Source of the DNA: Octopus vulgaris
Taxonomy: Eukaryota
Length of the DNA stretch: 64,000 bases
Assembly: GCA_951406725.2 (NCBI GenBank)
Contig: OX597820.1
Location: forward strand, 46,748,001 to 46,812,000
Reading direction: 5' to 3'
This document shows positions 6,195 to 60,750 of this stretch, piece by piece (within the stretch, counting starts at the first letter, position 1; each line of letters begins with the position of its first letter). Below the pieces are notes generated by a model. That model had not been told where the DNA came from. It saw only the letters and a program-made list of their open reading frames with translations, and searched no databases. Position numbers and translations under genes: made by a program.

Positions 6195-6391
6195 TGTATA
6201 TAATACTGTATTCGCCTTGATAGATCACTAGCCACTACACATTCTTTATTTTCTCTCCTTGTTTCTTTCTGTGGAAGAGCATAGGTTCGAAATGTTAAAG
6301 ACTTTTTCACTTCCCGAGTGTTATACTAATACATCTGTTTGTTATCTACACCACATGTCTTTGTCTTTTGTTTTGTTTTTTTGTGAATTCT

Positions 6392-6445
<54 letters not shown>
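6005..6445 (+). repeat. (TA)n microsatellite with an embedded Penelope-type 3' fragment (about 6195-6395) carrying a hammerhead-like motif
   Basis: Long TA runs on both sides; the insert matches 36698-36888; motif cttt-ctgtgga-a-gagc atag gttc-gaaa-tgtt-aaag at 6265-6300. Confidence 0.7.
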
Positions 6446-6449
<4 letters not shown>

Positions 6450-6729
6450 AATCTATGATGCTTAAAACACACAACCAGGAATTTTTGACTTTTGGCACAC
6501 TAGATTCTTTCTGACTTTATTCTATTTGCCGTTTTCTTGAGGTTTTTTTTTTTTAAATTAAAAACTTTTAAATGTTATTGTTTTTATCATCCCATAAATG
6601 GCGGTGCCCCAGCATGGCCACAGCATCTGTTAACTTCCAATGGTTCAAGACCATTGACAACATCAATCTCTTTGATCTAGGAGAGCTGTAAAGGCCAAAG
6701 TCACAGGCCTTTCTAGCAGACCAATCCAA

Positions 6730-7300
6730 TTAAAAACAAACTTACGTGGGAGACATAATCAAAAGTAGAAGTACACCAGAGTTGATATAATTCCAATTGG
6801 AAAGACAGCCCTATCAGTACATTCAGCAATGATGTAGTCTGGTTTAAATAAGCTATTGACAATTTAACTAAGGGATCCTTATGCCACACACAGTTGAAGG
6901 CTTTACTGATGTCAATAACAACAATGCTATCACCAAAGTTCTCAAGAGTTCTCAGTGAGTTGTGAGGTAGGAGGGCATATCTCCTGTAGAACTGGTTCTA
7001 AAGAAACTCTGCTAATGGTCACCAAGTAAAAGACAGACAAAAGGTGGTGAAAGAGGATTTTGTTTGTGACTGTTTCTATTGTCTTTGAGACATAGGAAGT
7101 AACTAGCATTTGAGAGGTTGACCTTTGTGGGAATAAGTCAGAGTTATATGTTTCCATAGATTGGAATAGATTCTTTTAGTGAGAAAAATATTGAAGTGTT
7201 TAGCAGTACAGGATATAAATCCTTGAAGTCACTGCTTGAAATTAATGGGAAAAAACACCTGTAAATTAGATCGCCTTACCAAGGTTGGCAGGAATAGAAT
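6730..7300 (-). pseudogene. Decayed non-LTR retrotransposon RT (CR1/Jockey-like)
   Basis: Minus-strand pieces VTSYVSKTIETVTNKILFHHL, FRTSSTGDMPSYL, LENFGDSIVVIDISKAFNCVWHK and INSGV match LINE RT motifs, with stops and frameshifts. Confidence 0.7.
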
Positions 7301-7639
7301 CTTAACATATTTGCTGACTGATGCATGAGATGGTGAGGTGGAAAATTTTGCTAATTCCATGCAATCTAAAACTGGAAGCAAAATAGGTTGTAAAGTGCTA
7401 TTTAGAAAGATATCTTAGCTGATGTTTTGGAAAAGATGCTGTCAAAGAAAAAATTGAGCTGAGATAGACGTTTTCAAGACAAAATAATTCCATATGGGTC
7501 TCTTATGTATGGATAGGAATCAAGTGGTGGAATATACTTAAATTTACCTCTTATTTTAACTTATTATATCTCTCTTAATTAAATTAGTCACTGACCTACT
7601 CAAAAGAGCCAGTAGCTCCTAGTATATGATATTAGTAAT

Positions 7640-7992
7640 ACAGTTCTATATTTAAGAAATGAGGAATTATGTACATTATTTTCATTTGACATATATTTGT
7701 CCTCATCTTGTTTGTTGTTAACACAACGTTTCAGCTGATATACTCTCCAGCCTTTCTTGGGGAAATTTCGAACCTGGGTTCTCATTCCTAGGGTATTTTT
7801 CAATGTTGTTGCTGTTCAGGTCACTGTCTGGAATCAAACTCAGAGTAGCCCACACTCTTAACCACTACACCATATGCCCACAGGCAATTACAGAGTGAAT
7901 TTTAGGGCTTATAAATTTGGAGGGCATATCATCCAAAACGTGTTGACAACAAACAAGATGAGGACAAATATCCATCAAATGTAAATAATGTA
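7640..7992 (-). mobile_element. tRNA-head plus hammerhead short retroelement, copy 1 (ribozyme core partly deleted)
   Basis: Minus strand: gggcatatggtgtagtggttaagag ... aaggctggagagtatatcagctgaaacgttgtgttaacaacaaacaagatgaggac; partial inverted copy of the 3' end at 7918-7992. Confidence 0.7.
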
Positions 7993-8242
7993 TGGTTTTA
8001 GTAGTTCATAATTTGTTGCTAGCGACATTTAGAAGGCCCCTAAAGAATCACTTGATTACTTGAAGTAACTACCAAATCTCCCTCAAATTATTTCCTAGCA
8101 TCATAAAGAAAGTTACACTGGTCAATGTAGTCCTTGATATATTACCTATGAAATGCCTCATGGCATAAATCTGCTTGATCAGACTTGACCTGGGGTTAAA
8201 TAACAACAACAACACTATATAAACATGTTGCTATGAACAATA

Positions 8243-8438
8243 ATGGTTTCAAACTTTGGAACAAGACTAGCAATTATCAACGCCAATACTCAAATTGTAC
8301 ATTTTTTTTATCAACTCTGTAAAGATGAAAGGCAAAATCAACCTTGATAGAATTTGAACTCAGAATGTAATGAGTCAGAAAAGAGACTGCATAGTATTTT
8401 TTCTGTCACTCTATAACAGTTTTGCAAGCTGACTAACC
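8243..8438 (-). mobile_element. Old SINE family A copy with TSD
   Basis: Degenerate core gatgaaaggcaaaatcaaccttgatagaatttgaactcagaatg; flanks gttgctatgaaca / gttactatgaaca. Confidence 0.65.
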
Positions 8439-8990
8439 TTGTTACTATGAACATTTATAAGAAGAGACCAAAGATTAATACAATACATAATACAAGAAAA
8501 ATTTTAGTAATATCTATTTTAAATAACATCCTAAAATATCTGGCCCCTGTTACTGAAAGTTGAATGAGCCAGATATACAGCATTAAGTATTGTCTCAAAG
8601 ATACAAAACAAATTGACTGCTAAATAAATTAAAGTCCTATGTGAGAGTAGTTCAATATCTAATCCAGCTGATTATTTTGACAAGCTGAAGAGTTAGAAAG
8701 TTTCTGGAATTAAAGACAGAAGAATAAAGATCTTTTAGTGAGTGAGATGTGAACAATTATAGTCAGAAGATCCCATAAATGTTGATTTCGATGTATAGAG
8801 AAGCAAACAATTCTCTATGAAGTTTATACTAGAGTGATGATGATAGAACTGGAAGTGAAGCTGCCATGTTAGTGTTTCAGTCATGACCCAAGGAATGGAA
8901 CTCATACATTATGAACTAGCAAAAGACTTCAGTCATCACTGCTTATGACTGACAGTAAGTCATTCCACTTAATACTGCTTATTTATATCA

Positions 8991-13491: not shown

Positions 13492-13507
13492 CAACTAGGG
13501 TAGCCAT

Positions 13508-13850
13508 ATAGTTCTATATTTAAGAGATGAGGAATCATGTACATTATTTACAATCAGCAGATATTTGTCCTCATCTTGTTTGTTGTTAACGGGCATATGG
13601 TATAGTGGTTAAGAGCGTTGGCTACTAACCCTAAAATTTTGAGTTCAATTCCTAGCAGTGACCTGAACACTAACAAAAATAATAATAATAATAATAACAT
13701 CGAAAAATACCTTAGGAATGAGAACCCAAGTTCGAAATTTCCCCAAGACACCTGAAGAAGGCTGGAGGGTATAGCAGCCAAAATGTTGAGCTAACAACAA
13801 ACAAGATGAGGACAGATATCCATCAAATGTAAATAATGTAAATAATGTAG
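13508..13850 (+). mobile_element. tRNA-head plus hammerhead short retroelement, copy 2
   Basis: Inverted 3'-end piece 13508-13590; tRNA-like head 13591-13660 (A-box tggtatagtggtt, B-box gagttcaattcc); (AAT)n; acac-CTGAAGA-a-ggctg...cagcc-aaaa-tgtt at 13748-13790. Confidence 0.7.
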
Positions 13851-14269
13851 TGCAGCCATGTATCTCCTTTACTAACAGATACCTGTTTCTGTTGTTCTAT
13901 CATACTCTAACCTTTCATTACCTGAAACAAAGCAACCGTCCACAAAATTACTCCCCACTAAGTTGAGGGGACTTGTCTTGCAAGTTACTTAGTCACCTTG
14001 CTGGTAAAGGTTCCATGTAAAAAGTACCCAGTACACTCTGTGGTGAAGTGGTTGGCATTAGGGAGGGCATCCAACCATAGAAATCATGCCAAAGAAAACA
14101 GTAGAGTTTGTTGCAGTCTTGAGGTTTGCCAGCTGCTATCACACCATCCAACGCATGCCAGCATGGAAAGTGGATTTTAAATGATAACAATGGAGATGAT
14201 GATGATGGAAGTAAACTCTTATGAATGTTAAACTTTGGTAACTTAATTCCATAGTGACATTTTTGTATT

Positions 14270-17137: not shown

Positions 17138-18530
17138 ACGAGAAGAAAATGAATGTAAATAACAAGGAGAAATTCATCGTTTTCACTGGTAAGTCTTTAA
17201 TTTAATTAATTAACAAAGAAGAAAGTAGCATTTACGATCGTTTCAATTTACTAGTTTTAGTAAATATCTTCAGAATGTGAAAAATAAATTGATACATTGG
17301 TAATGGTAATAAAGTCAAAATTTGTTAAGAACATTATATTATGTTCTTAAGTTGATTATTTGGCTAGGGAGTGGATTTCATTGTAGTAGATTGGTTAGTT
17401 TATGGTTCCACTGGGTAATTAAAGCAGGGTGTATATCATTTTGGTGTGGAATCCCAAGTTTGATTAAGCACATTTTTTAAGAGGGGCCTAGTACATAGCA
17501 TTAGCAGTAGAATATCACGCCTCGTTTCCAACATAAATATCTTTGATAGGCATAAAGAAATTTATAATTCCACACTACAGAAAGCAGGATTTAAACAAAT
17601 TAAATACCTTGACCCTAATCACCATACAAGTAGCCCAAATAACAGAAACCCACTCACTAATACCATTAACACCAACCATACACCATACATCACCACAAAC
17701 TACACCAACAATAAGAACAGTAGGTGTAACCCCAATAAAAACAACACCAATATGAACAATGCCAAGGTCCATACACAAACCACCAATAATAACAAAAATA
17801 GCCACAACACTAATACCGATAAAGTCATAATCAATAAGATTAACAATATTAACACAACTAATAACACCAAGTACACAAATAAGCTGAAAAATGACATTAG
17901 CTACAAAAATAATAATATAAACCTACACATCAGTATGAATAAAACTAAAGCGCTCCAAAGAACCAATATGAACCCTGTTAATAACAAGAAAGCCATGCCA
18001 TCTAGTCCACATAAACCCTATGCAAGCAGCACCAATAAAACAGACAAAAGTAACAGGAAAGTGAAACCCGACTATGGAAATAAGCTAGATAGCCATAACC
18101 ATAACTTCACACAACTCACAAACAAGGAGGGTAGCTTCTATACTAGAAAAAAAACTATAGAAAAAAATAAACAAAATAGTTGTAACATAACATGAACGCA
18201 GATATACCTAATAATTTATGTGGCTGCAAGGATAGAACAAAGTGCTATTTCTCAAATAGATGTAAGACAAATGACATAGTTTACCAATGTGACGTGCACA
18301 CAAATAGCCAGATAAAATCATATATAAGCACCACTAAAAACCAAATGATACTTAGATATAACACACACCAATCTAACTTTAGAAATAGGAGTAAGGCAAA
18401 TTCAACAGAGCTCAGTAGATATATTGTTGAACTTAAGGATAAAAACATAGATTATAGATTAAATTGGCATATACTCACAAAAACAACCTCGTACAATACT
18501 GCCAATAGATGCTGTGATCTCTGTTTACCT
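17137..18530 (+). mobile_element. Truncated Penelope-like element: RT C-terminus, linker and GIY-YIG endonuclease, preceded by an inverted pLTR
   Basis: RGLVHSISSRISRLVSNINIFDRHKEIYN near 17480-17570; ORF 18192 CGCKDRTKC..C..DIVYQC..SYISTT..RYNTH..STELSRYIVELK..W..C.LCL is typical of PLE GIY-YIG; a minus-strand hammerhead-bearing segment at 17137-17460 abuts (TA)n. Confidence 0.85.
17229..17277 (-). ncRNA. Minimal type I hammerhead ribozyme with canonical core
   Basis: Minus strand catt-CTGAAGA-t-atttacta aaac tagtaaat-t-GAAA-cgatcg-TA-aatg: stem I catt/aatg, 8-bp stem II, palindromic stem III ACGATCGT, GUA cleavage triplet. Confidence 0.8.
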
Positions 18531-35420: not shown

Positions 35421-35459
35421 AAAAGAAGATGATACTCTTTACGTCTCGGCTTCCAGCAA

Positions 35460-35846
35460 GACTTTTCTACTCTAGGTACAAAGCCCGAAATTTCGGTGGA
35501 GGGGACCAGTCGATTAGATCGACCCCAGTACGCTACAGGTACTTAATTTATCGATCCCGAAAGGATGAAAGGCAAAGTCGACCTCGGCGGAATTTGAACT
35601 CAGAACGTAACGGCAGACGAAATGCCTATTTCTTTACTATCTACAAGGGGCTAAACACAGAGAGGACAAACAAGGACGGACAAACGGATTAAGTCGATTA
35701 TATCGACCCCAGTGTGTAACTGGTACTTATTTAATCGACCCCGAAAGGATGAAAGGCAAAGTCGACCTCGGCGGAATTTGAACTCAGAACGTAACGGCAG
35801 ACGAAATACCGCCAGGCATGCTAACGTTTCTGCCAGCTCGCAGCCT
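35460..35846 (-). mobile_element. SINE family A dimer
   Basis: Two cores in tandem joined at gacgaaatgcc|tatttctttact. Confidence 0.85.
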
Positions 35847-45260: not shown

Positions 45261-46043
45261 ATATGTTCCCATAGAAACTGATGGATATAGCCATGAGGTT
45301 AGGTTTAGGGTTAGAGTTAATATTTCCTGTCCATCGCAAAATTTCATTACTTTGTTAATTCATTTTCTTTCTTTTTCCTTCATTAAACATTTTCATCTCT
45401 AAAAGTTTTCAAATGTTTTTTTTTTTTAATATTTATCTCAAAATCCTGTCGAGGTCGATAAAATAAGTAAAAGTTGAACACTGGGGTTGATTTAATAGAC
45501 CTACCCCGCCTTAGAAATTGCTGACCTTGGGATCTTTACCTTTTGACCGACAGATTTAAAAAATAATTTTCTGTAACTAAACACTTTCAAATTTCGTATA
45601 CTTGTAGAATGTGTCACATAAAACATCTTTTACTCTTGGTTGAGAAAATTCTGTATTTTGGAAGTTATTTCTTGTTAAAGCTGTCGTATTTCGGTAATTT
45701 CAACCAATTAATGACGTGTATTCAGCTGAATAAAATTACTGCTGTTGTTTGTCAACAACTTCCGGCGGTGTATATTTGACCTTGTGCCAAAATTTGAAAC
45801 CAGTATTAATTTCAAAATAAATAAATAAGCTATGACTGCCATAAAATCGTACTTCTTGTATGAAACCGAAGGGTAGAGTGGGAAGATATTGCCCAATGTT
45901 GGGAAAGTCATTGGAAAACAAGTCTAAGTGAAAAGAAGTAGGAACAGGCGTTTATTGAGAAAAAGGGGAAGGAATTCTTTATAGAGAGAGGAAGAGTAAA
46001 ATAATGATGTGTGAATGGATTTGTAATAATAATGAAAGAGTGT

Positions 46044-46440
46044 AAGGCGGCGAGCTGGCAGAAACGTTAGCACGCCGGGCGAAATGCTTACCGGTATTTT
46101 GTGTGCCGCTACGTTCTGAGTTCAAATTCCGCCGAGGTCGACTTTGCCTTTCATCCTTTCGGGGTCGATAAATTAAGTACCAGTTACGCACTGGGGTCGA
46201 TATAATCGACTTAATCCGTTTGTCTGTCTTTGTTTGTCCTCTCTGTGTTTACCCCCTTGTGGGTAGTAAAGAAATAGGTATTTCGTCTGTCTTTACGTTC
46301 AGAGTTCAAATTCGGTCGAGGTCAACTTTGCCTTTTATCCTTTCGGTGTCGATAAATTAAGTACCAGTTACGTACTAGAGCCGATCTAATCGACTGGCCC
46401 CTTCCCCAAAAGTTTCGGGCCTTGTGCCAATAGTAGAAAT
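46044..46440 (+). mobile_element. SINE family A dimer
   Basis: Two cores joined at gtaaagaaata|ggtatttcgtctg; aataatgaaagagtgt duplicated on both flanks. Confidence 0.85.
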
Positions 46441-47689
46441 GAATAATGAAAGAGTGTGAGGATATGAGTTTAAGAATGAGGAAGAGAATTGACAACGTTA
46501 AATATACATCTAACTGCAAGACAAAAACATTTCCAGTCATTAGAAACTCTTTGACTTGAAAATACTGAAGGGAAGGCGAAGATCATCGAAAGAAATCTAC
46601 ATTCGAGGTGAATTGCAGAAAAAGAAGAAAAGAAAAGTTGCATAACAACGAGAAACAAGAAGAAACGGAAGCACGACCCGAATAAGAAAAACTGGAAGAA
46701 ATCAAAATATAAAAAAAAAAACAAGAAGAAAATGGAGCAAGGTTTCAAGCAAAAAAAAGCATTAAGGATTTCTGAAAGAAGAGAAAATGATAGAGTGATT
46801 GAGAATGTGGTGACAAATGTGGCGACAGACGACAGGATAATATATAGTAAGAAAGTATCTGGTGACAAACTACTGCGGAGAATTTAGTAACAAAGAAAAT
46901 TGAAAGAGATTAGAAACATATTTGGTGACAGACGACAGCATAAAATGCAGTAGGAAAGTATTTGATGACAGATGAGTGAAGACGATACAGCACGGGGGAA
47001 AAAGTATAAGAATGTATGGTATTCAATAACTTAAGAACATAGCATGAGAGAGAGAGAGAGAGACCAAGCATTATTGTGACAGATGACCAGGAAACGTAAT
47101 ATTTTCAGTCATGTATTGGTAATCTTTCTATATCTCCATACAATTTCTCTAAAAGTCGTTTGTATAATTTATTTCGTACTCAAATATACCTGATCATTTC
47201 TTTTTTACCGGAACTACGCTATTTTTTAAATACATTTCATAACTTTGTTGTTTAGGCACAAGTCTATACTGATTGAGTAGACCTATGATCAAAAGCCTCC
47301 CAACCAAAATGATCTCATCTTTTTACAAGAATTCCAAGTTGTACATTATCCATTATGTGCCCTTCATGTTCTTAAGGCAGCGAAGGGTGATTTGTGAGAG
47401 ATTTTACTATTTTTAGCAGTTTGAGCGATCACTTAGATTCCTTTGTGTCATGAAATTTTTTTCCATGCAGAACTGTTGGTTTGTTATTCTCGTCATTGTC
47501 GTCATCGTTTCAATGTTCACGTTGCCCTGTTGATATGGGTTGGACAGAATTTTTTCAATGTTTTACCAAGGCTTTCCGATCTTTTCTGTTTGGCTTCCAC
47601 TTTTCTATTTCTTCAATTTCTGCTCAAATTGATTTCATATTTGGTATATTGGTGTAGTTTTGTATTGTAATCATTGACGTGAGATTCAT

Positions 47690-48270: not shown

Positions 48271-49077
48271 CATTCAAGCTTTCCTCTCTTTTTTACGCAT
48301 CATAATGCACTTTTTAAGCTAGTTCTTAAAACAGCTAACCAAAGAGAATTCCCTTAATTGGAACGAAGCAAGATTATGGAAAAGTCACATGGTTTGAACC
48401 TTTCCACAATCAAAGAAAAGGAATGTTGTCCTTTGGTTAAGCAAATCCGACGAGAATGGGATTGCGGTATTTTCAATAGCTCCATATGAATTACAAGCCT
48501 TTCAACAGCAATCTAGATACATATCTGAAATAATATGATTAGTAGTGATGGCCGTATTACCTTTGATCGTAGGTTTGCGGGATCAGGGCGTGGCTATGTG
48601 GTGAGAAGTTTGCTTCTGAAACACATGGTTCCAGGTTCAGTCCTACTGCACAGCTATTTGGGCAAGTATTTTCTACTAAAGCCTCGAGCCAACCAAAGCC
48701 TTGTGAATGGAATAGGTGGACGGAAACTGAAAGAAGTCCGCATATATATATATGTGTGTATGTGTTTGTGTGTGTGTGTGTGTCTACCATTACTTAATGT
48801 TGGTGTGTTTACGTGTCTATAACTTAGTGGTCGGCAAAAGATAACGATAAAATAACTACCAGGCTTTGAAAGAAAGTTAAGCACTGGAGGTCGATTCGTT
48901 CGACTAAGAATTCTTCAAGGCGGTACCCCCAGTAAAATATAAAAGACAGACAATACATAAGATTACGTCATAACCAATAAGTAAACATTTTAACGAATTA
49001 TTTTACCCCAACCTGCTTCTTTCTCTGTCTCTCTCTGTCTGTCTGTTTGTCTCTCTCTCTCCCTTTCTTTTTTATTC

Positions 49078-49660
49078 TTATTTCTTTACTACCCACAAGG
49101 GGCTAAACACAGAGGGGGCAAACAAGGGCAGACAAACGGATCAAGTCGATTATATCGATCCCAGTGCGCAACTGGTACTTAATTTATCGACCCCGAAAGG
49201 ATGAAAGGCAAAGTCGACCTCGGCGGCATTTGAACTCAGAACGTAACGTCAGACGAAATACCTATTTCTTTATTACCCACAAGGTGCTAAACATAGAGGG
49301 GACAAACAAGGACAGACATAGATATTAAGTCGATTACATCGACCCCAGTGTGTAACTGGTACTTAATTTATCGACCCTGAAAGGATGAAAGGCAAAGTCG
49401 ACCTCGGCGGCATTTGAACTCAGAACGTAACGTCAGACGAAATACCTATTTCTTTATTACCCACAAGGGGCTAAATATAGAAGAGACAAACATGGACAGA
49501 CATAGGTATTAAGTCGATTATATCGACCCCAGTGCTTAACTGGTATTTAATTTATAGACCCCGAAAATCCTCGGCGGAATTTGAACTCAGAACGTAACGT
49601 CAGACGAAATACCGCTGAGCATTTCGCCCGGCGTGCTAACCATTCTGCCAGCTCGCCGCC
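49078..49660 (-). mobile_element. SINE family A trimer (units of about 180 bp)
   Basis: Three head-to-tail units with one A-box head (ccattctgccagctcgccgcc at the right end). Confidence 0.88.
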
Positions 49661-53227: not shown

Positions 53228-55640
53228 ATTGTTGTTGGCATCCTTTTTGTCTCGGGAGACAATGGAGTAGCGCATAAAATAATCTAGCCCAGCTTTTACA
53301 TTTCATGTCCTAATACATCTCCTGCTGTGGCTGTGTAGTCCTATCCTGGACAAACACTCCCTCTGGCAGGTGCCGCAAATGTAGCGAAGATTTTGCTGGC
53401 TGGTTGTAATGTCATAGTTTCTTGTTGATGTCTTTTCTTGTCTTTCCATTTCTCCTCTCTCTCTCTCTCTCTCTATGTCACTCCTTTGTGTTCCCTCTTT
53501 TACGGCACGTCGCCAATCTCCACGGTTGCTGGCAACTGCTTCCCAGTTGGTAATATTGATGTTGCAGGCATTCATGTCCCTTTTGCAAACATCCTTGTAT
53601 CATAAGAACAGTCTTCCCGCAGACCTAGTGCCCCTAGCAAGCTCTCCGTAGAGTATGTCCTTGGGGATTCTGCCATCTTCCATACGGCTAACATGTCCAA
53701 GCCATCTCATACGTCTTTGTGTGAGGAGTGCAAACATACTTGGTATTCCTGCTTGCTTGAGGACATCTTTGTTGGGGACATGATTCTGCCATTTGATGCG
53801 AAGGATTTTCCGGAGGCAGCGCAGGTGAAAGACATTTATGCGACGCTCTTGCGTGTGTATGGCGTCGAAGTCTCACTTCCATACAGTAGAGTGCTAAGTA
53901 CACATGCCTAGTAAATTTTCATTTTGTAGTCATGGTCAGCTTATTGTTGTCCCATGCCCATTTGGAGAGTTGGGCCATCACAGCAGCTGCCTTGCCAATG
54001 CGTATATTGAGCTCAGCATCAAGGGATAGGTTGTAGGTGACGGTAGAGCCAAGATAAGTACACTTCTCCACCTCCTGTAGTCTGTGATCTCCAATATGTA
54101 TATTTGGGATGTCTGATGTAGCCCGACCAAAGATGTTGGTCTTCTTGAGGCTGATAACTAAGCCAAAGTCGCTACATACTTGCTCAAAACAGTTGATGAG
54201 CCTTTGTAGGGCTTCTTCTGTGTGTGATACCAGAGCGGCATCATCAGCAAATAGCATCTCCTTGATCAGGACGCTTCTGATTTTGGTCTTGGCACGCAGA
54301 CGCGAGAGATTGAACAGTTTCCCGTCACTTATACTGTGCAGAAACACTCCATCATCTGATATCTCAAAGGCATGTGACAGCAGCAGCGAGAAGACGATGC
54401 CAAATAATGTAGGAGCAAGGACACAATCTTGCTTTACCCCGTTTTTTTATTTGGAAGGCGGCTGATGTTGAATCATTGTGCTGTATGCTGCCTTGCATAT
54501 CATCATGGAAAGATTTGATGATCCTCAGCAGCTTTGGTGGACATCCGATTTTTTGGAGCAGGATGAAAAGGCCTTTTCTACTAACCAAGTCAAAGGCCTT
54601 TGTCCTATCAATGAAGGTCATATATAATGGCATTTCCTGCTCTCTGGACTTGTCCTGAAGTTGGCGTAGGGAGAATATCATGTCAACAGTTGATCTGCTT
54701 GTTCTAAAGCCACACTGCGATTCTGGATAAATTCGAGAGGCAAGCAGTTGTAGCCTCGACAGGATAACGCGAGCGAAGGTCTTTCCAACAGTGCTTAGAA
54801 GAGATATTCCGCGATATTTGTTACAATCACCACGGTCACCTTTGTTTTTGTAAAGCGTAATGATGTTAGCATTCCGCATATCCTGAGGGACTGTACCCTC
54901 TTCCCAGCACTGACACAGAAGCTCATGAACGTACCGAAGAAGGATGGTTTTTTTTGCCAGTGTTGATGATCTAAGGGGATGCCGTCTTTTCTCGGAGCCT
55001 TGTTACTTGCTAGGGAGTCAATAGCCTTGGTGAGCTCGGCTATAGATGGCAGACTGTCAAGTTCGCACATGACTGGCAAGATCTTGACACCCTCGATTGC
55101 AGCCTCAGCTACCGTGGTCTCCCGTGAGTAGAGATCCTGGTAGTACTCCACCCATCTATCCATTTGCTTGCTTTGGTCCTTGATGAGATCTCCAGTAGTG
55201 GATTTCAGACGGACTGACTTGGTTGCGGATGGACCGAGAGCCTTCTTCAAACCGGCATACATCCCATGGGTGTCGCCACTGTCAGCAGCTGACTGGATAC
55301 TCTGACAGATTTCCTGCCAATTTTGCACAGCGTCTGACAGTCAGTTGGGTTTTATTTCTTGCCTTTCTGAGTTCTTCGAGTGACTTTGTCGAAGAATCAC
55401 TCTTTTATTGCATCAGAGCTGCACGTTTTGCTTCAATAACTGTTTCCAGCTCTGAGAGCCCAGCACTGAACCAATCTGGGTTTTGCCTTTCTCTCATGCC
55501 GAAAGTATCTATTGATGTGGTATACAAAGCTTCCCTGATATAATTCCACCTACTTTCAGCAGATGAGGTTGGGTAGCTACTGAGGGCAACCTTGATAGAA
55601 ACAGCAAAACATTTTCGCAGTGTAGGGTCCGAGGTTCTGG
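53228..55640 (-). mobile_element. 5'-truncated RTE/BovB-like LINE (RT and C-terminal zinc finger), frameshifted
   Basis: ITLYKNKGDRGDCNKYRGISLLS, PESQCGFR, DRTKAFDLV, LFADD, YLGS and CGTCQRECLSRIGLHSH; short (CAA) tail; abuts a family B SINE. Confidence 0.95.
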
Positions 55641-58469: not shown

Positions 58470-60750
58470 TAAATCAGAGTCGGTAGTGATGTGATGAGAC
58501 TGTTCACTAAGGAAGGCGATGTGGTGGCCTGGATAAAGATGTGACTGGTGGCGAAGCTGCAGTGAATAGATGTGGCTAGACTTATGCCGTTGTACTTAGA
58601 AAGCAGTGCGCTGAATCTCTACCTGGAGATGGATGAGGCGGACCAAGAGAAAGCGGGAAAAATTGAAGAGCGGCTGAAAGACGCGAACACGGAGGGGACT
58701 TTTAAAGCCTACAACAAGCTCGGGAGAGTGAGATGGCCGGCGAGCAGATAGACGATCACGTGAGCGAGATTAATAGATTGGTGGGCCTAGCAGGGTTTAC
58801 TGGAGCAGCGATGGAGCGGGTGGTGAAGTTGGCTTTTGTGACCGGCTTCCCCAACCATATCTCTGTACGTCTACAGCAGATGCTGGACATCGAAACTATA
58901 TCAGTAGGAGAGGTGATCGACAAATCGCGGGTGTTGTCGCAAAGCGACACTCGCGACGTAGAAGCCACAGTGCCGACGGATACGAGCGGGACGAAGAGGC
59001 AGGCAGCAAACGACAGCAACTGTCTAGCGAGGCGAACGGCCCTGGGACCATGCCTCAGATGTCGATGCCCGTACAGGGTCAGGGAGTGCACAGAACCGAA
59101 GTCAACGGTGGTATGTTTCCAATGCGGCCACCCTGGGCACATAGTGAATAACTGCTGCCGGGAAACAAAGAAGAGTTACTGCGCCGTTAGTTCCCTCCAT
59201 GACCAACTGAAGGCGCATCACCGAACGTTGCTTGCAGTAAGGTTTATGGTGGGTGTGAGGGAAGCACGAACCCTCGTGGATACGGGTTGCACAAGAATCC
59301 TGGTGACCGCAAGAATGATCGAGAGCTGAAGAAAAAACATCAGGCTCAGAGAGATAGATGATAGGGAGGTCAAATGTAGGGGTGTCAACGACGTGAAAAT
59401 GGAAATACAGGGTTCGTGTTGAGGCTGCAGTTGATTGTAGTTGATGAGGTGGTGGACAGCGTCGACGTAGTGATCGAATGAACGTGATCACACGATTGAG
59501 CGGTGTGACGGTTAGCGGGCAGGAGTAAAGTTTGGTGACCGATGTCCTGCGTGCTATTAGTGTGGAGCGGAGGAAGAAAACTGTAGGAGTGATGGATTAC
59601 TGAAACAGAGAGGGTCTTCCATCGTCACAGTTAAAGACGACGACTTCCGTGCTGAGTTCGACGGCGAAAGACGGACGGCGGAGCACTTCTTGAAAGGAGA
59701 ACCTCCCGTACTGAGAAACAAGGTGAGCTGCAACGAGCACAGCCTAAAAGGAGAAGCCAAGTTTGAGTTCGAGACAGAGGTGAACTGGTGGATAGAGGAG
59801 GGCATCTTGATGCCAGGGAGTGAGGAGACGAAGGGCGGTGTGCTGCCGTTGATGGCTGTGTTTCAGACGACAAAGAATAAGATTCTACCGGTGCTAGACT
59901 TCAGGGAACTGAATGAATATGTGTCCTGTTATATGGATGGTGTGACACCAAACGTGTGTGAAGAAACCTTTCGTGAGTGGAGGCGAATGGGGGTGGGACG
60001 ACTACGATCATCGACCTCAAGTCAGCCTATCTGCAGCTCCATGTATCAGAGAAGTTGTGGAAGTACCAACTAGTGAGCTACAGGGGCAGAACGTACTGTC
60101 TGTCTCGACTGGGTTTCAGCCTGAGTTCAGCGACGGTCCTCAAGGTGGCTTTCGGCAAAGAGGTCAAAGTGGAGCAGGCTACCAGTTCATATATCGACAA
60201 TATCTTGGTAGATGAGAATGTGACATCGGCAGAGGAAATCGCGGGCTATCTTTGGAGGTTCGGGCTGACAACAAAACCGTCGGAGGCTATAGAAGGAGGT
60301 ACGGCGCTGGGATTCAGGATCGAAAGAGACAAAGTGTGTTCCGCAGCAGCTAGAGTTGGAAGGGATTACATCTGTGCAGGCTGGAGACGAAGTGTTGGTG
60401 AAGCCCCTGAACAAACCTCGAGTTTAACAAGTGCAGATTCCGAAGAGATGTGGTTGGAGACTGATGACAAATACACTTTCAACGAAAGATATCTCAAAGT
60501 ACACTTAACTGATATGGGGCAGAGACAGTGGCATAACTATGGGTGAAGGTGAGGGTGACAGGAGGCAGTCTATCACCCGGGCGACACTTTTGTGGAGGAG
60601 TCACTTCTGGATCTGGAGGCGTTTCCATCATCCGAGTGACACTTTTATGGAGGCGGCACTTTTGGGTCTGCTGTATAGACTGTGGGGCCCAGGGGTGGCA
60701 AACTCAGGGCTACCTCAGGCAGTACACATTCTAGCGTGTTGCTAGAGCGT
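58470..60750 (+). mobile_element. Decayed Ty3/Gypsy LTR retrotransposon (gag, protease, RT; RNase H and integrase largely deleted)
   Basis: gag-like LMPLYLESSALNLYLEM, CCHC knuckle CFQCGHPGHIVNNC, protease LVDTGC, RT KILPVLDFRELN, IDLKSAYLQL and SYIDNIL; several frameshifts. Confidence 0.9.

Follow-up and report, generated by a model that had tools for sequence, protein, structure and literature searches.

The tRNA-headed repeat with a hammerhead ribozyme at positions 13508-13849 of the window (the whole 64,000-nt stretch of Octopus vulgaris DNA analyzed here) is the pLTR of a broken coding Penelope/Poseidon retrotransposon, and not a stand-alone SINE. The repeat works like a SINE and belongs by class to Penelope/Poseidon: the whole coding element measures ~2.9 kb, and solo copies of its pLTR with target site duplications (TSDs), on the order of 10^4 in number, are the dominant form. 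As a rule, autonomous retrotransposons rely on Pol II, and SINEs depend on Pol III and take their 3' end from a LINE. We favor, with a probability of about 0.6, a reading in which the start of the RNA is fixed by a captured Pol III promoter and the SINE-like solo copies arise when reverse transcription (RT) starts within the first pLTR.

A pLTR shared by the repeat and its coding element

Copy 1 of the repeat lies between degraded TSDs (13498..13507 and 13850..13859, 8/10 identity with an exact core of 6 nt). It opens with an inverted arm (13508..13590, minus strand), which corresponds to the 3' part of the pLTR, includes an optional tail of ~32 nt (13508-13541) and shows a 2-nt microhomology at its joint with the head. 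The tRNA-like head (13591..13665, plus strand) forms the 5' end of the pLTR; its +1 is position 13591, and the A box from +8 (13598-13608) and the B box from +53 (13643-13652) have the spacing of a tRNA. An (AAT)n spacer follows (13666..13697, plus strand), variable in length between copies and often the site where other retroelements insert. The body (13698..13849, plus strand) is the start of a Penelope/Poseidon ORF with the ATG at 13718-13720 and a broken frame, and its 3' limit is the untailed site. Inside this coding stretch lies a minimal type I hammerhead (13747..13791, plus strand), made up of stem I, CUGANGA (13752-13758), an extra A, stem II, a mutated GAAA box (13780-13783) and a palindromic helix III, with a predicted cut after 13787. 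The sequence-only reading named a tRNA-like head, an (AAT)n spacer, a minimal hammerhead and an inverted duplicate of the 3' end, and each is found where that reading placed it. Its statement that the repeat has no ORF is right for the fragment itself and wrong in that the fragment carries the start of the Penelope ORF (~52 codons from the ATG at 13718).

Copy 2 spans 7638-7992 and matches copy 1 by blastn with an E value of 2e-46. On the minus strand it comprises an ORF end and 3' spacer leading into the head (7880..7916, stop codon 7911-7909), followed by the head (7879-7817), the body and a tailed 3' end (together 7638..7879); an inverted untailed arm lies on the plus strand (7918..7992). 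Both copies are inactivated, as had been supposed. In copy 1 GAAA has become AAAA and CGUU has become UGUU, stem I is disrupted, and a TTTT private to this copy lies between its two promoter boxes, A and B (13637-13640, plus strand); copy 2 has lost 9 nt of the hammerhead core. The inverted arm of copy 1 pairs with its 3' end across about 50 nt (within 13508-13849). Elsewhere in the window, a different short repeat, also abundant and built of 184-nt tandem subunits, occupies 35456-35819, 46034-46450 and 48960-49627. Open frames that resemble retroelement fragments by eye include an asparagine-rich one of 243 aa (17464-18195, plus strand), an RT-like one of 212 aa (54364-55002, minus strand) and a gag/protease-like one of 207 aa (58706-59329, plus strand).

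A search for an autonomous Penelope-like element (PLE) with the same 3' end led to a Penelope/Poseidon partner through shared upstream flanks. Common sequence upstream of the head, the last part of an RT-endonuclease ORF, is found in 6 of 30 hammerhead loci (listed by position), in 1 of 30 loci picked by the head and in copy 2 of the window. The head comes after the stop codon in 30/30 copies selected by the ORF C-terminus, and the ORF end runs into the head in 30/30 copies picked by the spacer. From the ATG the body stays in frame across the ribozyme and the tail and leads into the N-terminal part of this ORF; the pLTR overlaps the ORF start, and the first ~52 codons are the body. One locus (L440) holds a complete pLTR-ORF-pLTR unit that begins at the head +1, and another (L443) is a partial tandem of ORF end, pLTR and ORF. 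Candidate partners found with the Pfam GIY-YIG model were rejected as Penelope-like families of other kinds, with the 3' end of the repeat present in 0/30 loci.

The ORF of about 2410 nt joins, in a single frame, an RT with a C-terminal GIY-YIG endonuclease carrying CCHH, the endonuclease being assigned by alignment and pattern and not by Pfam. The RVT_1 match is weak (E 2.7e-6, below cut-off) and the Pfam GIY-YIG model gives no match to the C-terminus of the family, which aligns to the Pfam-positive GIY-YIG of locus L091 and has the CxC and R/E/H pattern. The CX2-5CxxC linker, a Neptune feature used as a class criterion in the available part of PMC8557442, is absent in L239 and its close relatives and present in L091; we assign the family to Penelope/Poseidon because it lacks this linker. 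Poseidon_Ac of Anolis (PMC11167929) and Pen2a/Pen3a of Adineta (PMC3846280) have the same linker-free ORF of RT and C-terminal endonuclease, according to the portions of their descriptions available. A relative of the protein occurs in Octopus sinensis (73% identity). No intact ORF appears among 150 scored of 4871 candidates, where the longest frame reaches 569 aa of ~800, and all five 5'-complete or tandem copies have broken frames. A second, apparently young Penelope-like family is also present in the genome (L091, L092, L037, L042), with a Neptune-type CxxC linker, an upstream ORF of ~360 aa and many intact frames of 781 aa; loci related to it carry a UUGAUAA-type hammerhead variant downstream.

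The tRNA-like head and the hammerhead

Taken by majority, the A and B boxes of the family agree with the tRNA-type consensus and are spaced exactly as in a tRNA. When three heads were aligned locally with 11 tRNA sequences from the genome, z reached 7.3 (Arg-TCG); among the few isotypes compared, Arg-TCG is the best-scoring donor for one head and Arg-TCT for two. The probable tRNA origin of the head rests on these boxes, their spacing and this alignment; neither head nor hammerhead is detected by Rfam (gathering threshold, and E up to 1; window and 8 loci) or by ARAGORN. The head is an integral part of the repeat, as the sequence-only reading had it: 27 of 30 head-picked loci run on into the body, and in the remaining three other elements interrupt the sequence within the (AAT)n spacer. 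The head and (AAT)n as a SINE of their own were rejected because of this continuity and because the ORF end runs into the head.

Other LINEs, whose C-termini we take to resemble R4/Dong, occupy the spacer and split head from body at L002, L014, L028, L121, L122, L156, L162, L167, L341 and L355, and many copies are head-less because of such insertions. The ORFs of these spacer-inserted LINEs are also TTTT-poor. Ten of 30 heads (loci L289-L318, L111-L140) are preceded by 8-24 nt of the reverse complement of their own 5' end, which suggests fold-back extension of the finished cDNA at a small 5' palindrome.

The intact 35-nt hammerhead core has 2155 exact occurrences in the genome and its reversed control has none, so the motif is not a product of chance. 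Of 83 arms from sets assembled without regard to the ribozyme, 67 retain CUGANGA, 69 GAAA and 42 the palindromic CGUU, and 29 retain all three. At the motif level the hammerhead has the Penelope-type features given for metazoan minimal hammerheads in the available text of PMC4209133 (minimal type I, an extra base after A9, a palindromic helix III), which bears out its earlier assignment. The pairing of two copies through the palindromic helix III is computed at -5.7 kcal/mol. The exact hammerhead pattern has 0 matches in metagenome contigs. In Anolis Poseidon, ribozyme mutants had no effect on insertion in vitro, as reported in the accessible portion of PMC11167929. We take the hammerhead for inherited Penelope hardware, probably not a circle-making device.

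Copy starts and the insertion signature

The abundance of the repeat changes sharply at the head. Exact 22-mers number 758 for the spacer before the head, 3735 for the head start, 7993 for the ATG region and 104 for the tail-to-ORF junction, with controls at 0. Retention of the first three 22-mers is similar (6, 7 and 8 of 30), and abundance therefore falls ~5-fold within ~30 nt at the head start; the corresponding arm numbers, 3,800, 16,000 and 30,000, are orders of magnitude from a small calibration. The upstream match is no longer than 7 nt in 25 of 30 heads listed by position, which places about 80% of starts no more than 7 nt from the first base of the tRNA, and the other five continue into the ORF, three of them being near-identical duplicates. 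Longer copies begin at the same point. Among 92 distinct tail-to-ORF junctions (90 loci), six reach the head start and begin there, none runs upstream into the ORF end, and the remaining 86 stop earlier or are interrupted; a set of 30 loci selected by the beginning of the ORF includes one tandem and two copies that begin at the head. A single start is thus common to long and short RNAs, and we infer that it lies at about -5 to -7. Pol III usually initiates a few bases ahead of the first base of a tRNA. Since 45 of the 92 junctions end no more than 100 nt beyond the tail, RNAs containing the ORF served as templates for short copies.

After removal of duplicates by flank, 210 stretches gave 165 distinct insertions: 65 two-ended, 87 one-ended and 13 other. 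The arms form inverted pairs or stand singly, and direct pairs are only occasional. In 62 of the 65 two-ended insertions the tail is present on exactly one end (binomial p 2e-15), and 42 of the 65 have an exact TSD of at least 8 nt, mostly 8-14 nt, compared with 1.6% of shuffled pairs. The 3' ends fall at two positions about 32 nt apart, which recur in RNA reads of one other organism and in contigs of four more; two of these four show additional variants at high depth and may contain younger copies. Arms within one insertion agree at two subfamily sites in 37/42 (expected 0.62) and 14/15 cases (expected 0.58) and have 21 rare variants in common, where shuffling gives 6 on average, and therefore both arms usually derive from one source; two of the four columns used for this comparison, outside the 3' repeat, gave no excess. 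Neither arm is systematically longer (24 versus 29, with 9 ties). The untailed start site contains a 9-nt unit (e.g. window 13832-13849) in one, two or three repeats, in frame with the ORF, and its number may stem from slippage during priming.

Movement by Penelope machinery, proposed from the window copies, is borne out by the inverted arms, the one-sided tail, the TSDs and an autonomous partner with the same pLTR. One-sided tails, inverted arms, TSDs and 5' palindromes are known for Penelope in the part of PMC3846280 available, and internal RT start at two tail-flanking sites is described in vitro for Anolis Poseidon in the excerpted text of PMC11167929. In the favored reading of a captured Pol III promoter combined with internal RT start sites, transcripts would begin 5-7 nt ahead of the head. 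The Penelope RT-endonuclease, probably a dimer, would nick both DNA strands, and reverse transcription would begin internally, for each strand at its own site, with 32 nt between the two. An RT start in the first pLTR would give a SINE-like copy of ~330 nt, and one in the second pLTR an ORF-bearing copy; microhomology or the small 5' palindrome would let the two cDNAs join head to head. With the promoter and the RT start sites retained, solo copies could re-transpose like a SINE; no separate lineage of solo copies is visible.

Promoter, alternative readings and known relatives

On the sense strand, the 2.67 kb between the ATG and the 3' pLTR contain no TTTT, the Pol III terminator, common to at least 30% of copies (246 aligned segments, at least 17 copies per ORF position), and private runs occur at 0.37 per kb. 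By contrast, six shared runs are found in 1.8 kb of the second Penelope family of the same genome, and 79 related ORFs from metagenome contigs have a median of 3.2 TTTT per kb, a density also given by the 59 of them with similar T content. When one 569-aa frame is resampled with codons as used in two control ORFs, P(0) is 0.007, and at matched T content (59/79 related ORFs) the Poisson P(0) for 2411 nt is 5e-4; estimated from 14 shared TTT runs alone, the P for absent TTTT is a weaker 0.03-0.1. Shuffling one decayed copy with its codons preserved gave no significant deficit (3 TTTT observed, 3.0 expected), and GGGG is likewise absent; both count against the Pol III reading. Nor is the deficit unique: 6 of the 79 related ORFs are without TTTT in the matched stretch, and several R4/Dong-like ORFs of the same genome are equally TTTT-poor. 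As an indication of Pol III, the TTTT evidence is suggestive and not decisive. Within 450 nt past the match, none of the 79 related ORFs has an A/B-box pattern, where the pattern recovered 10/30 positive controls and many matches end before the ORF end. Related Poseidon ORFs from other samples (L447, L449, L458, L492) contain TTTT-free stretches of 1.8-2.6 kb, with no tRNA-like head seen.

We infer that the element is transcribed by Pol III from the 5' pile-up and the lack of a shared TTTT, both of which bear on it indirectly. It is rather unlikely, given the same pLTR origin, that the head is a passenger, that Pol II reads from an internal promoter starting at the head, and that the short copies are by-products of RT start in the first pLTR on an ordinary mRNA. 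Such a promoter has a precedent in the Penelope of D. virilis, where it is internal, TATA-less and placed at the pLTR start (PMC2377424, in the section available), and, in the accessible passages of PMC2377424 and PMC3846280, Penelope elements with Pol II-type promoters likewise have 5' palindromes and a pile-up of 5' ends at the boundary of the pLTR. Majority boxes of tRNA type at exact spacing, together with starts clustered directly ahead of the tRNA +1, speak against a passenger head. The TTTT-free stretches of other Poseidon ORFs would suit Pol II, but five of the six TTTT-free relatives have a TTTT shortly behind the ORF (the contig of the sixth ends there), and in the octopus family the shared TTTT is missing from the non-coding pLTR too. 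Pol II also gains from the use of ORF-containing RNAs as templates for short copies and from the ORF having to be translated; an uncapped RNA would require an unusual translation route, which counts against Pol III. That the ~2.9-kb autonomous coding element as a whole exchanged Pol II for a tRNA-derived Pol III promoter, purged terminators from its entire frame, is translated uncapped and spawned its own SINE (~10^4 pLTRs) is possible, and we hold this wider claim tentatively, at well below even odds.

The sequence-only reading saw in the repeat a separate SINE or retrozyme that borrows the enzymes of another element. The analysis does not support this: the pLTR of the autonomous element itself comprises head, spacer, ribozyme and tail, no column is diagnostic, and the copies are mostly inverted pairs rather than head-to-tail arrays. 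A SINE would have a lineage distinct from that of its partner, and here the sequence is the same as the partner's pLTR. We regard as improbable an independent tRNA-headed SINE with master copies of its own, mobilized in trans by Penelope enzymes. Short copies do outnumber ORF-linked ones about 4-5 to 1, possess both promoter and RT start sites and show slightly lower CpG decay (0.18 versus 0.25), but their non-CpG divergence equals that of ORF-linked copies (median 4.1% in both) and their organization is identical to that of the autonomous pLTR. After correction no column is class-specific (best p 0.006 over 231 columns) in a comparison of 60 ORF-linked with 106 other arms, query-biased sets dropped, which is small enough that minor solo masters could be missed. 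A candidate short-copy marker, position 31 of the head, was traced to query bias: its enrichment was gone once these sets were dropped. Least credible is a non-LTR retrozyme, in which self-cleaving tandem transcripts would give circular RNAs of ~300 nt as the transposition intermediate. The 29 of 83 arms with intact minimal hammerheads, the palindromic helix III with its computed two-copy pairing, and N7, a position tolerated by the ribozyme, as the sole core position with a common non-CpG variant would all agree with it. Against this, the copies begin at the head and end at the two tail sites and not at the cleavage site, inverted pairs place the ribozymes on opposite strands, and the Anolis ribozyme mutants left insertion in vitro unaffected in the available account (PMC11167929). 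The same-strand tandem units with a hammerhead each that characterize retrozymes are not the arrangement found, head-to-tail pairs being only occasional by informal count (L153, L435).

Three ordinary RNA-seq runs from another organism, about 6% of each scanned, yielded 6,292-8,587 matching reads from both strands equally. In this sample there is no pile-up of read begins or ends, and the 15 joints listed, of 80, include neither a back-joint at the cleavage site nor a spliced intron. The pattern fits passive co-transcription; small RNAs and Pol III RNA lie outside the reach of such data.

The pLTR shares with tRNA-derived SINEs (SINE2) a tRNA-like head, a length of ~330 nt, dispersal at high copy number, TSDs and a 3' end in common with an autonomous partner. 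Unlike in SINE2, the entire unit, head included, belongs to the partner, the 3' end is fixed by internal RT start sites and not by a poly(A) or repeat tail, and the insertion is inverted. The octopus tRNA-derived SINEs OK, OR1 and OR2 were reportedly described by Ohshima and Okada in 1994. In the available parts of PMC4824008 and PMC4758252, OR1 and OR2 are each classed as CORE SINEs; OK, OR1 and OR2 were set beside the octopus pLTR by description. With Penelope/Poseidon PLEs, as far as their accessible descriptions go, the family shares a pLTR over the ORF start, the pLTR hammerhead, an inverted 5' arm, solo pLTRs, an optional one-sided tail of 30-40 nt, the TSD and the 5' palindrome; it differs from them in the tRNA-like A/B-box head, the dominance of ~10^4 solo copies and the lack of a shared TTTT.

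Closest in design are the TRIMp3 elements and Sm-alpha. TRIMp3 elements (Cassandra, Helenus, Ajax) also have a Pol III promoter derived from a small RNA within a terminal repeat, but are non-autonomous LTR elements of about 0.3-1.3 kb according to the available text of PMC10886601, whereas the octopus repeat belongs to a ~2.9-kb coding Penelope. The same text argues that autonomous partners of TRIMp3 need Pol II. TRIMp3 elements are defined by two true LTRs with PBS and PPT and a TSD of 4-5 bp; the octopus family has inverted insertions and TSDs of mostly 8-14 nt. Sm-alpha and Sj-alpha of Schistosoma are short repeats in which a Pol III-type promoter precedes a hammerhead; they differ, in the portions available of PMC6765202 and PMC2770079, in being tandem repeats with multimeric transcripts that are cleaved, whereas the octopus unit has a minimal Penelope-type ribozyme within an autonomous pLTR. 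Animal non-LTR retrozymes also are short repeats that lack coding capacity, are related to pLTRs and carry type I hammerheads, and are believed to move by PLE enzymes, but are defined by tandem units with at least two ribozymes (bioRxiv 10.64898/2026.07.22.740005 and PMC7761336, both in part). The available text of that preprint contains neither 'tRNA' nor 'Pol III'. Among the matches listed by our full-text literature search, none describes a Penelope whose pLTR promoter derives from a tRNA, in cephalopods or elsewhere. In a paper on O. vulgaris repeats (PMC13282606), the accessible text has no 'ribozyme' and the accessible supplement no 'hammerhead'. The sequence may already be catalogued, the search having covered literature outside Repbase and Dfam.

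The identification provides a Penelope partner for the tRNA-headed repeat. In this family one sequence serves as both SINE-like unit and autonomous element, which offers a concrete route for the birth of a SINE. A tail on one side in nearly all two-ended insertions fits two internal RT start sites, one per strand, and amounts to a genome-scale test of the Penelope mechanism. In annotation, such copies would be classed as unclassified SINEs, and inverted insertions of this kind within host transcripts would form double-stranded RNA, a possible target of A-to-I editing. If the whole element is indeed read by Pol III, it would provide a rare long Pol III mRNA and raise the question of its translation.
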